This document shows positions 13,476 through 25,939 of a stretch of DNA of 25,939 nucleotides, piece after piece; within the stretch, counting starts at the first letter, position 1, and each line of letters begins with the position of its first letter. The translations under genes were made by a program, and so were the position numbers. Source of the stretch: an uncultured Gammaproteobacteria bacterium (GTDB taxonomy: Bacteria; Patescibacteriota; Patescibacteriia; UBA9934; GWF2-40-263); the NCBI GenBank assembly GCA_964365355.1, contig CAYIPP010000001.1, positions 1-25,939 on the forward strand, written 5' to 3'. The notes below the pieces were generated by a model. The model did not search any database. It worked only from the letters and a program-made list of their open reading frames with translations, and was not told where the DNA came from.

Positions 13476-13504
13476 AGTATACCGTTGTTATTCAAGCGAA
13501 ACAA
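13476..13504 (-). promoter_or_regulatory. Possible ftsA promoter overlapping the 3' end of dgkA
   Basis: TTGTTT (13504-13499), 17-nt spacer, TATACT (13481-13476), 27 nt before the ftsA ATG. Confidence 0.5.
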
Positions 13505-13862
13505 GCGTGTTGAGATAGGGCCAAAAAATTATTAATCCGACAACAAACGATAAGATAGACATCACCAGCACGGCTGCGGCCATAATATCCTTTACGTCCT
13601 TTACCATAGGATGCAGACGAGGCTTAAACAAATCAACCATGCGTTCAAAAATACTATTGATGAGCTCAAGTGAAAGCACGGTTCCAATCAACAATAATAA
13701 GACAATCCACTCGTACACACGTAGATGAAACCATACCGCGACGATAATAACTCCAACAGCGGCAATAATTTGTAATCGAAAACTTTGTTCCGTTTGAAAT
13801 ACCACACGAATTCCTCGCAACGCATGCAAAAAACTTTTTCCAAATTGTGATAAACGAATCAT
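13488..13862 (-). CDS. dgkA: Prokaryotic diacylglycerol/undecaprenol kinase family protein
   Basis: SFLHALRGIRVVFQTEQSFRLQ, ELINSIFERMVD and KDVKDIMAAAVL, with three TM helices. It overlaps ybeY by ATGA, as in the conserved ybeY-dgkA pair. Confidence 0.9.
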   Translation of the reverse strand: MIRLSQFGKSFLHALRGIRVVFQTEQSFRLQIIAAVGVIIVAVWFHLRVYEWIVLLLLIGTVLSLELINSIFERMVDLFKPRLHPMVKDVKDIMAAAVLVMSILSFVVGLIIFWPYLNTLVSLE

Positions 13863-25700: not shown

Positions 25701-25939
25701 TTCCCGCACAATCAAATGCCGTCGCCCACACAGGATATTCTTTATTTGTCACATAGCCGGAAGTGTTCCACTCGACAGTATCGTCTGTAAAAAACGTATT
25801 CGTGTCATCTGGCCCCATGAGTTGTTGTTCAACAGAATCATTCAAAGCGGCTGTAAAAATCGATGCTGAATCAACCGCATAAAAATCCACCGTTGAAACT
25901 CCAATATCGTCTTTGGTTAATGCTTGAAGCTGTTTAATG
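16783..25939 (-). CDS. Giant (>3050 aa) Cys-rich multidomain surface protein, 5'-truncated by the window edge
   Basis: The frame stays open from 25938 (IKQLQALTKDDIGVSTVDFYA...) to the stop at 16783, so the track start at 25890 is not the true start. Recognised modules from N to C: Ig-like (ATAFDCAGN), 4 IPT/TIG, 3 SbsA/Big_5-like plus Big_2-like Ig pairs, ~13 DUF4215-like repeats, PsbP-like, pilin/GspG-like, and VWA (DISTT...T...LTDG). Confidence 0.9.
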   Translation of the reverse strand, partial: IKQLQALTKDDIGVSTVDFYAVDSASIFTAALNDSVEQQLMGPDDTNTFFTDDTVEWNTSGYVTNKEYPVWATAFDCAGNSATASKIYVVIRPAHCFNATQDATFGETGLNCGGDPTSADYCGACVANPCTATSDCAPGLLCDQGICVSTVRIDSVSPGDGAVGNLVTIHGIGFGDTPGEVVFEGADATESKVVGAYQCVGETKWSNTEIVVQVPQDAKDGPLVVTSSEDLSDRTDDTFGPLSPDFDVNAILRPGLCSVDPQVGVQGSLVKFTGLGFGTALGSAGLYFKNFLSPVLTLITPETSLSALVPNMSAGGVMTQLFSGDYQCVNASGETIGTFCMKDSDCGAGNTCAKSWCSESLAYCVTDANCGAVGGQCVSLRVGSNKLSFDVQDLAGPEALPTISYIESGWKMCDSGTKSGKACGKDTDCPGSQCVVSPTSGPIGQYVTIYGTNFGSSDGLVHFKKIVEEYDAIGDTNFPTQCGENFWHDTWITVKVPSTFPTSDSMVLPLDPGSYLVTVAQGTATSNAVAFEVVTGVPGPSVCMLDPVSGPIGSTVDVYGERFSSSKGQVTFYDQQDADYMDWSDTQITNAIVPNLAKTGPVFLKDSNGISSNSQNFIVGSCLEDVVCQANYTCCSNGSCQLVCPDLTPNVSHFAFRVSTGVIPENPTVLIACTPTIKSPTPSSQWLDSKTVCLNAGVSATFTKDMDQSTVANHVRVQRCTAQQTENCQQWSNVAGTMTIAVNSFNWNSDVDFVPNSLYRATIIGGKNGVKASAGAGGAPMLNDFVWQFTTGGVGDLCEIDGVLIKPPEYTATVQDALISYNLGLSAKGKQCIELNTNAFSYAWSSSVPQLAEVQDPIAGSGSDFAKAGVKAKAETPPGSPAHISAEVTSVTPKKSGTGNLIIDFSDPALEAYFPTCSTACVNVKPWFRFKSEIMANTLNHQTVQLYECQNSLCADTELVGPNLVSQVDCTVDSQKPNVCLPSQPVYVTTSSSLKASTSYRMILNGLQVKSPSNVLLKDAGSNFGSEQNLYYVDDFSWKFQTKSSEISCQIDHISVAPKSQILQSIGARQDYIATGYGDPDECDVSGQALQDTGYNWEAWTAQDDPTNIKNGGTTTDVAFMVQSGAITLAQTLPTYCSSVCLNTGSFVLSTDAVCGDSVVNGTGKTLAEECDDANTTGGDGCSTSCLKEGTALCSATVTTNCCGNNLVESNEQCDDENFVSGDGCSVQCLNEGASSVGSVCGDGKVDFYLQTGGEDCDDGNKKNGDGCSSNCLFEGSVAQGSFFGKCGNGGPPDLGEDCDDGNATNGDGCSSICLHEGSSLSYGSVCGNTTLQTGEDCDDGNTTSGDGCSSLCLKEGSSLNYPTPSFCGDAGTPSIGEECEATISSSNPQQIGGYAAAEISTNAAKEIGDDGGTAYSIVTATAVGTPDVTGMASLGIECSCQSDQACGSTSTTGCGTGSCCFARPQLETVLPAQGNGPGGLGYCRNTAVSVTFSQLMDEGTFAIPQGAPVANLRLHLVGKDGKFVQNDPSLCPEHYQQLAQTDTSSVNVFVRVWNWLRSLFNKDAVAATNDCFAQVSYSAVNHGNGQEIFLNYPDLLEANATYQIEIVGDSNGDDEIDQGVLSEHKVGLCLNPSGTNCAPLFTQTFTVGDEVCELEAVKVVDNGKVTKEPYESSSPNFFSKKGETHSFQSTPLTYREGTGTYESIVATNAYAWEWTWNSSIEDSETSNVVSYKIVPPPTQPIAEFDSFGTNGSEYVVAKATITLDEVHADNTDGDVVSGSTEVTAFVCEQPWPVLGSALGFPYIENTTPSNFGFFYCKDRGIDGTDDDLPPLSDPVYVTSVVTTGLLQELLFKVEGTSDAIGVRVYQNSLYLSPEAWFEAQGFSGGYEHVSLDGYEAVISGNTIYAAAANQTNTDLYSNMYVISYNPTAGLDAKEIFQQVLENWRFNANTYVVSHIGLCKIGTSDYVQNTENAFIGCSWDGDCIETPDTNHVCSVTNVELIAGGGGCPLAESENPYCDNDKGKIQRDLHRLTDITTQVTKLNEFGAKNKHCSVTKNLSCVADPQCPGTETCLAGFPTLQQGTYVPSMSVSTWESWNAQLSNELGLAMPIDPLNVYWNSCNLGAGYDPVTCFNGTEGKFMCPDKSHVYGYQSVGGEAYTLYTQLEYKLAKWNTKIDKSINDNATIVAEYVPAQYPWLGLAEGFTTDAGFCGPSTFWGVSQVCGDGIKGTGEECEPGQVDFESVQNLCGPSKTDSGSLPVSCKSDCVWQTIAEAMLAGAECIPQACGNSVLETTEDCDDGSLNGTYGHCSAICKLDDALVCGDGYLSGNEQCDCGSVEQYTQVQADQNSWPHSTVSVLSSTNPPLSISPQTFCLVPNGQYQNFGSCSYDCKFYGPSCGDGQINGAEQCDGETETWAGKLCMDGVTKCTTNSDCSSGTCGSGSGNQACGSSMICLTGANAGQSCLVGCGPYVLCSAFQYPLSRTRLCNDTACNWQAWTACVGGDQYCGNGKVEGTEVCDDGNQSNNDACTNTCIANMCGDGYVQSDVEACDNGENNKVPGTPNPCTVPYGGTCNYCDSLCQYHTTSGDYCGDGEINGDEICDGTNIRKQCFKAGSKAGKFCINDTDCASDSSCKTVGVCNGGNKNGDPCTKDSSSQCTVGWSCALPICASDCSGACPFTFQQTDLLVQSELEGAQPQPSISLFSYNNKEKETPDNALIQLPACLVGTKITTTVNNENVNTPAVDIVFITDISTTMWQTPAGEWGKSAPNRKIDIATASLSDAIETLLTSYPTGGGELRIGLVSFAKNAYNYGNLGAMNKQELKAQVAAFATNDYENGTQTGTALENAINLFKDVPADHIKIVVLLTDGQAYTALDGVKCTQKSGLFVTEAGQTQSWGPSWCVAQARYSVIQKSSEILFYSAMITTDNIYKAYGEHLSSMKCKGQIMSKLNDCDETDPAQTGVYAYNASTKAGIEVMYEEIVKSILSSTTTVSATKDTTTKSVKTVTPVGNSVELTLPSTFACQSKPFSLPLQTSFYGSGALKFDNFRFTYCPMP
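18139..19283 (-). repeat. Second, more degenerate array of ~7 CG[DN]G...E.C[DE] repeats within the giant CDS
   Basis: CGDGIKGTGEECE, CGNSVLETTEDCDDG, CGDGYLSGNEQCD, CGDGQINGAEQCDG, CGNGKVEGTEVCDDGN, CGDGYVQSDVEACDNG and CGDGEINGDEICDG. Confidence 0.82.
21797..22479 (-). repeat. Array of five complete plus one partial DUF4215 (Myxococcus Cys-rich)-like repeats within the giant CDS
   Basis: Consensus CG[DN]...E.CDD.N...GDGCS..CL.EG. Three exact 20-nt copies TTTCCATCATCACAATCTTC occur at 21914, 22031 and 22157. Confidence 0.88.

Follow-up and report, generated by a model that had tools for sequence, protein, structure and literature searches.

Fibrillar adhesins of bacteria (cf. PMC8286594) consist of an anchor, a stalk of tandem immunoglobulin (Ig)-like domains and an adhesive head. 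In Myxococcus, the surface receptor TraA, which contains Cys-rich repeats, and its membrane partner TraB, which contains TSP3 repeats, are encoded in one operon (PMC6372800). The VirB2-like pilins of Patescibacteria are proteins of ~100–130 amino acids (aa) usually encoded near virB4, and neither adhesins nor fusions of the kind described below were reported for them in the published survey of type IV secretion system (T4SS) genes (PMC12102498). Features of these systems are combined in the DNA analysed here, the whole contig CAYIPP010000001.1 (25,939 bp, henceforth referred to as the window) of a metagenome-assembled genome from an uncultured, ultra-small groundwater bacterium of the Patescibacteria; this genome is 853 kb in 150 contigs and 95.6% complete. 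Its minus strand encodes a giant surface protein followed by three small membrane proteins with TSP3 repeats, referred to as T1, T2 and T3, whose genes run into ybeY, dgkA and ftsA. This group of genes appears to be fixed across a class and is read here, with slightly better than even confidence, as a surface module in which a giant fibre anchored by a pilin-type hairpin is accompanied by calcium-binding membrane partners, with a role in attachment or in the envelope. A literature search returned no paper describing the module. It draws on kinds of component that are already known, namely giant or fibrillar surface proteins and VirB2-like anchors.

The giant protein has the architecture of a fibrillar adhesin, with an anchor (seen in its orthologues), a long multidomain stalk of four TIG stretches, a Big_5 domain and Cys-rich repeats, and a terminal VWA head that varies by lineage. 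It differs from fibrillar adhesins in its predicted anchor, for which a VirB2-like hairpin at the N-terminus takes the place of an LPXTG motif, a type I secretion system element or an autotransporter. In addition, its gene is class-wide, single-copy and embedded in an operon-like string rather than strain-variable, and is accompanied by dedicated TSP3 membrane partners.

The likeness to TraA/TraB lies in the combination, within one operon-like unit, of TIGR02232 Cys-rich repeats (163.5 bits over 6 stretches in the giant) with TSP3 membrane partners. TraA additionally carries a PA14-like variable domain and MYXO-CTERM, and TraB a beta-barrel and OmpA. No matches to PA14, MYXO-CTERM, OmpA or a beta-barrel were found in the module proteins using Pfam and NCBIfam and, because these defining parts are absent, the module is analogous to TraA/TraB and not a member of that family. 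It also differs in using predicted monoderm-type bitopic anchors and in the length of the giant, which is about five times greater.

A signal peptide and a two-helix hairpin are shared between VirB2-like pilins, the giant orthologues and P600, a ~600-aa protein encoded directly upstream of the giant in relatives, and small pilin genes occur both upstream of the module in relatives and elsewhere in the present genome. In contrast to a small (~100 aa) subunit encoded with VirB4/VirB6 machinery, however, the giant is ~3300 aa and P600 is 600 aa long. The module hairpins carry Ig-rich ectodomains of 500 to more than 3000 aa and are encoded in a string of housekeeping and division genes without a nearby T4SS ATPase.

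Conservation and probable transcriptional layout of the module

The ybeY gene was located in 60 relatives, and 40 loci sharing the genus, family or order of the window were annotated against the window proteins; the class-level sample comprised 20 loci from 20 other families. At the order level, T3 is directly upstream of ybeY at 34 of the 40 loci, a T1- or T2-like gene is directly upstream of T3 at 35, the giant gene lies no more than four genes upstream on the same strand at 35, and ftsA is downstream at 35. The misses are mostly contig ends or failures of open reading frame (ORF) calling. At the class level, T3 adjoins ybeY at 17 of 20 loci, the giant is present at 18 and ftsA at 17. A sequence-only reading of the window had proposed a linked set of four genes, to be refuted if the genes did not occur together or keep their adjacency in other genomes. 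They do both, in the same orientation and with short gaps, across the order (35/40) and the class (18/20 with the giant). Full T3 profile matches were obtained in 201/201 sampled class genomes from about 100 families. The C-terminal domain of T3 was present in 17/17 class genomes and matched weakly in 8/284 other Patescibacteria, all eight times in unrelated neighbourhoods. The giant, a T2-like gene and T3 are kept co-oriented with gaps of 0–40 nt across roughly 100 families, while the htrA/pyk flanks vary. The class in question comprises Candidatus Uhrbacteria and relatives and is probably ABY1 in GTDB.

Gene spacing in the window, for which coordinates are provided in Table 1, is equally tight. 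The giant and T1 are separated by a TAA stop, 12 nt and an ATG start with a Shine-Dalgarno-like AAGGTG element inside the gap, T1 and T2 by TAA, 31 nt and ATG, and T2 and T3 by TAA, 2 nt and ATG. T3 overlaps ybeY, and ybeY overlaps dgkA, by ATGA. These junction sequences agree with the ORF layout and with the sequence-only reading, which had described the same gaps and overlaps in a co-oriented series of a giant gene and three single-pass TSP3-repeat genes, with no terminator until after ftsA; the first terminator-like hairpin on the minus strand past the cluster is indeed located just after the ftsA stop codon. Across the order, the median spacing is −4 nt for both T3–ybeY and ybeY–dgkA, where the ATGA overlap is the mode, 2 nt for giant–T1, 4 nt for T2–T3, 39 nt for T1–T2 and 168 nt for ftsA–ftsZ. 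The identities of YbeY, DgkA, FtsA, FtsZ and NrdR were borne out by Pfam and NCBIfam, with the Pfam families of the adjacent, co-oriented ybeY and dgkA both above cut-off.

The junctions of relatives were also scanned for terminators by a simple hairpin and T-tract search. Terminator-like elements were detected at 0/10 giant–T1, 0/31 T1–T2, 5/32 T2–T3 and 1/37 dgkA–ftsA junctions, compared to 28/46 for ftsA–ftsZ and 17/33 for ftsZ–nrdR. Separation of the cluster genes by terminators, which would have spoken against the proposed linkage, is therefore not seen at the first two of these junctions and is infrequent at the next two, while terminator-like elements are common after ftsA. The search for internal promoters yielded 19 sigma-70-like matches versus 29.3 expected in shuffled sequence, and none was taken as evidence. 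The module is probably transcribed through to ftsA, and T3 is most likely translationally coupled to ybeY. Given the position of the module in this string, co-expression with ybeY, dgkA and ftsA is likely.

The string itself is more widespread than the module. When the ybeY neighbourhoods of 20 genomes from other Patescibacteria classes were compared, the order hisS-HIT-rpsU-yqeY-ybeY-dgkA-ftsA-ftsZ-nrdR was found to recur without the giant. In six of these 20 genomes, yqeY and ybeY are separated by a single gene for a bitopic TSP3 protein. In one other-class family, a bitopic gene of 393–438 aa lies directly upstream of ybeY and combines TSP3 repeats with a cytoplasmic RVMPxEYRG motif like that of T3. 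The C-terminal head of this family's protein (loci L157–L159 and L164; e.g. L159, 5688–6887, plus strand) is type-IV-pilin/GspG-like and not PsbP-like as in T3, which suggests a T3 lineage that is older than the class and in which the outer head is exchanged. The module would accordingly represent an old insertion between yqeY and ybeY, or an expansion at that site around an older T3-like gene.

The arrangement rpsU-yqeY ... (phoH-pgpH)-ybeY-dgkA is known from Firmicutes (Bacillus subtilis). The order of rpsU, yqeY, ybeY and dgkA is the same there, and Patescibacteria extend it with ftsA-ftsZ-nrdR. The slot upstream of ybeY is filled differently, with phoH and pgpH in Firmicutes and with 12–15 kb of surface-protein genes here, T3 overlapping ybeY by 4 nt. 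Since the string is found without the module in other classes, the position next to ftsA need not reflect function. The further proposal of the sequence-only reading, that expression of the module is functionally tied to ribosome maturation, lipid-carrier recycling and division, is consequently not supported as stated. Two further hypotheses of that reading are that the small proteins would display or assemble the giant and that the arrangement would suit an episymbiont dividing on its host.

Architecture of the encoded proteins

Domain analysis of the giant with Pfam and NCBIfam identified TIG, Big_5, DUF4215/myxo_disulf_rpt and a C-terminal VWA domain. At least six Cys-rich repeats are arranged in two blocks, in agreement with the disulfide-type Cys richness noted earlier for this protein, and the VWA tip was seen in addition. 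The window copy begins at approximately residue 306 of the same-genus orthologue, so that ~305 N-terminal residues lie beyond the contig end. Neither this missing 5′ end nor the P600 gene was found elsewhere in the assembly by tblastn, which matched small pilin paralogues only. Full-length orthologues are 3200–3600 aa long, and their N-terminus consists of a signal peptide and a two-helix hairpin. The hairpin matches PF18895 (T4SS_pilin) in every full-length giant orthologue checked, while the TrbC/VirB2 match is weaker. PF18895 scores range from 30 to 39 bits across three relatives (giant orthologues L012, 33.8 bits, and L002, 30.2 bits; P600, 38.7 and 37.0 bits).

The giant is thus predicted to be anchored at its N-terminus by a VirB2/TrbC-like hairpin, with the VWA domain as its distal end. 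Because the contig ends inside the gene, this anchor is inferred from the orthologues. The absence of a C-terminal anchor, as originally noted, holds for the C-terminus, where none was found by domain and sequence analysis of the window copy, but does not extend to the protein as a whole given the N-terminal T4SS_pilin hairpin of its orthologues. The description of the structure as pilus-linked fared similarly. It stands with respect to the VirB2-like anchor of the orthologues but not with respect to an internal pilin-like head, for which there was no Pfam recognition. No Pfam family was matched even at E ≤ 1 within giant residues 1450–2000 and 1990–2200 (the latter at window positions 19300–19970, minus strand). 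By eye, residues ~1990–2200 resemble the pilin-like heads of the proteins at L059 and L159.

The tip of the giant is lineage-variable on a conserved stalk. Of 55 relatives, 27 have a VWA domain within the last 450 residues, and the others have different domains there, such as Ig or fn3. The window VWA contains a metal ion-dependent adhesion site (MIDAS)-like DISTT motif, and DxSxS is present in relatives.

P600 has the same hairpin as the giant together with Big_5 domains, and a pilin-like protein of ~100–137 aa is often also encoded upstream in relatives, preceded by yqeY. On the evidence of these orthologues, P600 and often a small pilin would also belong to the module. The genome of the window contains eight PF18895 matches, as well as a TraG-P-loop/AAA_10 ATPase on another contig. 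Three of the matches are tandem small genes on the 1.9-kb contig C141 (L151, 1–1887), and five are found on contigs C63, C40 and C89, two of them in ORFs of 446–494 aa. VirB2-like hairpins therefore recur across this genome as anchors at protein N-termini. Classical VirB4 (PF03135) and TrbL/VirB6 (PF04610) were not found in the 95.6%-complete genome, and none of the 60 loci analysed has a T4SS ATPase or VirB6 gene within the module or next to it.

In alignments, T1, T2 and T3 follow a common plan consisting of a predicted cytoplasmic N-terminus, one predicted transmembrane (TM) helix, a spacer, TSP3 repeats and a GY[ND]PxGxGxL cap. The TSP3_bac family (PF18884, cut-off 25 bits) was matched by T1 at 25.9 bits and by T2 at 29.1 bits; T3 scored 18.9 bits, below the cut-off. 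Across 38 orthologues, there is no variation in the DxDxDG columns of T3 (D151, D153, D155, G156, D174, D176, D178 and D182). A TSP3 cassette common to all three small proteins, as the sequence-only reading had it, is therefore upheld by the repeats and the shared cap, with a sub-threshold Pfam score for T3. Mean column identity is 28–31% for T1–T3 compared to 72% for FtsA.

In T1, a short cytoplasmic N-terminus and an ectodomain built of all-alpha helical repeats, in which 12 Cys residues are conserved, are followed by C-terminal TSP3 repeats with a GYNPxGPG cap. Its structure model (predicted local distance difference test, pLDDT, 91) shows the TM helix and the all-alpha repeat. A fold search with the helical ectodomain was uninformative in the PDB (best E 0.19) and returned only uncharacterised proteins from AFDB. 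T1 is present in the order, but in other parts of the class a second T2-like gene frequently takes its place. T2 contains Pro-rich spacers and, in most lineages, an N-terminal cytoplasmic peptide MFD..(K)EPEDIF.

T3 has a Pro-rich region ahead of its TM helix and a Pro-rich stalk after it. Its overall model has a pLDDT of 82.8, and the C-terminal domain (about residues 200–330) is modelled with pLDDT > 90 as an alpha/beta sandwich resembling PsbP/Mog1 (CyanoP 2lnj/2xb3, PsbP 1v2b). Foldseek comparison with PsbP/CyanoP gave E values of 9e-5 to 1e-3, a probability of 1.0 and a TM-score by target of 0.44–0.53. Pfam PsbP gave no significant match to T3 (0.18 in a relative). By its model, T3 would end in a PsbP/Mog1-like domain. 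Unlike the known members, this domain is joined to a membrane anchor through TSP3 repeats, and it is unrelated to photosynthesis. In T3 orthologues of other ABY1 families, additional domains are inserted between the TM helix and TSP3 or follow the PsbP-like domain. L048 (13428–14804, plus strand) and L051 (5232–6563, minus strand) have fn3-like ones, and L059 (13399–15018, plus strand) carries two pilin-like heads.

The cytoplasmic part of T3 contains the motif (I/V)x(T/V)MPExY/F in 38/38 order-level and 15/19 class-level proteins. The T2 and T3 cytoplasmic motifs are each unique to their gene within this genome. Co-folding of FtsA with T3 residues 1–72 gave a score of 0.00, which counts neither for nor against binding. 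T3 was also considered as the FtsQ of this genome, an assignment that was set aside. No FtsQ or POTRA domain was detected by Pfam in T1–T3, and the only weak FtsQ_DivIB_C match in the genome lies on another contig, C93.

Proposed role and competing explanations

In the favoured reading, the giant would form a cell-surface fibre of ~3300 aa that is held in the cytoplasmic membrane by its N-terminal VirB2/TrbC-like two-helix hairpin. From there it would pass through Big_5 and TIG domains of the Ig-like type and through acidic, disulfide-rich repeats and end in a distal head that differs between lineages and is here a putatively metal-dependent VWA domain. The second, shorter pilin-anchored Ig protein, P600, would act as a partner. 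Two to three N-in/C-out bitopic proteins would present calcium-binding TSP3 outer parts, to which T1 would add a Cys-stapled helical repeat and T3 a PsbP-like protein-binding domain, with T2 and T3 each exposing a short conserved peptide to the cytoplasm. These small proteins may form a calcium-stiffened, membrane-proximal layer or base and, with the fibre, attach the cell to a surface or a partner cell or organise its envelope. Together with the core genes for growth and division, the module would be expressed constitutively. With a variable distal head borne on a conserved stalk, the fibre most likely serves in attachment.

For the question of how Patescibacteria other than Saccharibacteria construct their surface and bind to partners, the module offers concrete targets in the variable head of the giant, the PsbP-like domain of T3 and the two cytoplasmic peptides. 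It takes up ~1.5% of an 850-kb genome and occurs in every sampled genome of the class. Use of the VirB2-like fold as the anchor of very large surface proteins, as proposed here, was unreported in the published survey of Patescibacteria T4SS genes (PMC12102498).

Several points weigh against this reading. T1 is not universal in the class and is often swapped for a T2-like gene, so a set of three partners is not fixed. The existence of the string without the module elsewhere means that its place next to ftsA is explained by inheritance, and small, slowly rearranging genomes of the Candidate Phyla Radiation (CPR) can retain gene order without functional linkage. The adhesive role is argued from domain types, and both the N-terminal anchor and the upstream partner are taken from orthologues, the contig ending inside the gene.

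The same hairpins could place the giant and P600 as minor, adhesin-carrying subunits of a T4SS-type (VirB2-like) pilus, an explanation that is considered unlikely. They would then co-polymerise with small pilins under a VirB4/TraG-like assembly ATPase, the VWA head would be carried on the filament, and T1–T3 would serve as base or assembly factors. Such an arrangement is consistent with the serial encoding of PF18895 hairpins in small pilin, P600 and giant of relatives, with the eight PF18895 genes and the TraG-P-loop ATPase of this genome, and with the wide occurrence of VirB2-like pilins and arrays in Patescibacteria, in which a PrgB-type adhesin was undetected (PMC12102498). However, a helical pilus lattice could hardly accommodate an ectodomain of 3300 aa on every subunit, and the hairpin may be a plain membrane anchor. 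Moreover, no T4SS ATPase or VirB6 gene accompanies the module at any of the loci examined, and PF03135 and TrbL were not found in the genome. The universal, single-copy and position-fixed occurrence of the module in the class, its operon-like linkage with ybeY-dgkA-ftsA, and the conservation of T3 and T2 in the manner of core genes would instead suit an envelope or surface-layer-like scaffold. This would be a calcium-cross-linked, disulfide-rich coat by which an ultra-small cell with little wall keeps its shape and stays intact, and it would be made with the division genes because each division needs new surface. The TSP3 and Cys-rich repeats are structural, Ca-binding elements in line with this. 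Such a scaffold is nevertheless regarded as improbable, as the distal head varies (VWA in 27/55) in a way typical of ligand-binding tips rather than lattice proteins, the ectodomains evolve fast relative to FtsA, and no self-assembly domain was recognised.

Adjacency may also be a matter of inherited gene order only, with independent proteins having been inserted between yqeY and ybeY in an ancestor, their genes having stayed in place because rearrangement is rare in these genomes, and no complex or division link among them. The string is kept throughout the phylum with or without inserted genes, its members hisS, HIT, rpsU, yqeY and nrdR are functionally unrelated to one another, T1 is replaceable, and the co-fold of FtsA with the T3 peptide gave no signal, which again counts neither way. 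This explanation is held to be quite unlikely in view of the joint retention of giant, T2-like gene and T3 in tight co-orientation amid varying flanks, the shared TSP3 cassette and cap, which argue for a common context, and the precedent of TraA/TraB. A T3-like gene with the same motif at the same site without the giant in other classes likewise implies a greater age for some of the set and its retention by selection. A more specific proposal, that T2 and T3 are transmembrane couplers whose cytoplasmic peptides (MFD..EPEDIF and ϕxϕMPExY/F) dock onto a cytoplasmic component of growth or division from the same transcript, for instance FtsA or FtsZ, while their calcium-binding outer parts hold the giant pilin-anchored fibre, is very unlikely. 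If true, the ultra-small cell would position or renew its attachment structure in physical connection with its site of division.

Feature coordinates and neighbouring genes

Table 1 Positions of the module genes, selected domains and adjoining division genes in the window.
Feature	Coordinates	Strand	Remarks
Giant surface protein	16783..25938	-	3051 aa in window; 5′ end cut by contig end
Giant: best-scoring IPT/TIG domain	25264..25482	-	aa 153-225; four TIG stretches within first 700 aa
Giant: Big_5 bacterial Ig-like domain	23566..23916	-	aa 675-791
Giant: best-scoring Cys-rich acidic repeat, DUF4215 / TIGR02232 myxo_disulf_rpt	21868..21966	-	aa 1325-1357
Giant: VWA domain near C-terminus	17332..17718	-	aa 2741-2869; MIDAS-like DISTT
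T1, 264 aa	15976..16770	-	TM helix 15-40, Cys-rich all-alpha ectodomain, TSP3
T2, 217 aa	15291..15944	-	one TM helix, three C-terminal TSP3 repeats and cap
T3, 332 aa	14290..15288	-	TM helix 74-100, two TSP3 repeats and cap, PsbP/Mog1-like end
ybeY (endoribonuclease YbeY, PF02130)	13859..14293	-	Pfam YbeY 117.8 bits; start overlaps T3 stop (ATGA)
dgkA-family lipid kinase (PF01219)	13488..13862	-	DAGK_prokar 107.7 bits; start overlaps ybeY stop (ATGA)
ftsA	12186..13448	-	Pfam FtsA; 39 nt after dgkA
Intrinsic-terminator-like hairpin and T-tract	12152..12175	-	directly 3′ of ftsA stop
Sigma-70-like promoter match TTGACA-16-TAAAGT, TG extended	12113..12140	-	upstream of ftsZ
ftsZ	10738..12066	-	Pfam; terminator-like hairpin after ftsZ at 10730-10705
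nrdR	10154..10699	-	last member of phylum-wide string; htrA, then pyk beyond

DNA of the window is present in groundwater and aquifer metagenome DNA runs, and no RNA run was listed among the matching runs. Outside the string, the plus strand carries a copper-handling cluster (769–5966) composed of a csoR-like repressor, a small ORF, an HMA-DsbD_2-cupredoxin fusion and a P-type ATPase of 961 aa that has two HMA domains. The GC content of this cluster, 0.49–0.53, exceeds the 0.41–0.46 seen elsewhere in the contig and suggests that the cluster is an island acquired by horizontal transfer. A protein of 232 aa that has a TM helix at its N-terminus and a single fn3 domain is encoded between the copper cluster and pyk (6826–7524, plus strand), on the strand opposite to the division string. 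In the C-terminal third of FtsZ, the linker ahead of the conserved C-terminal peptide contains a duplicated Pro-rich unit, EP.MQRAPE.RPEPPR.

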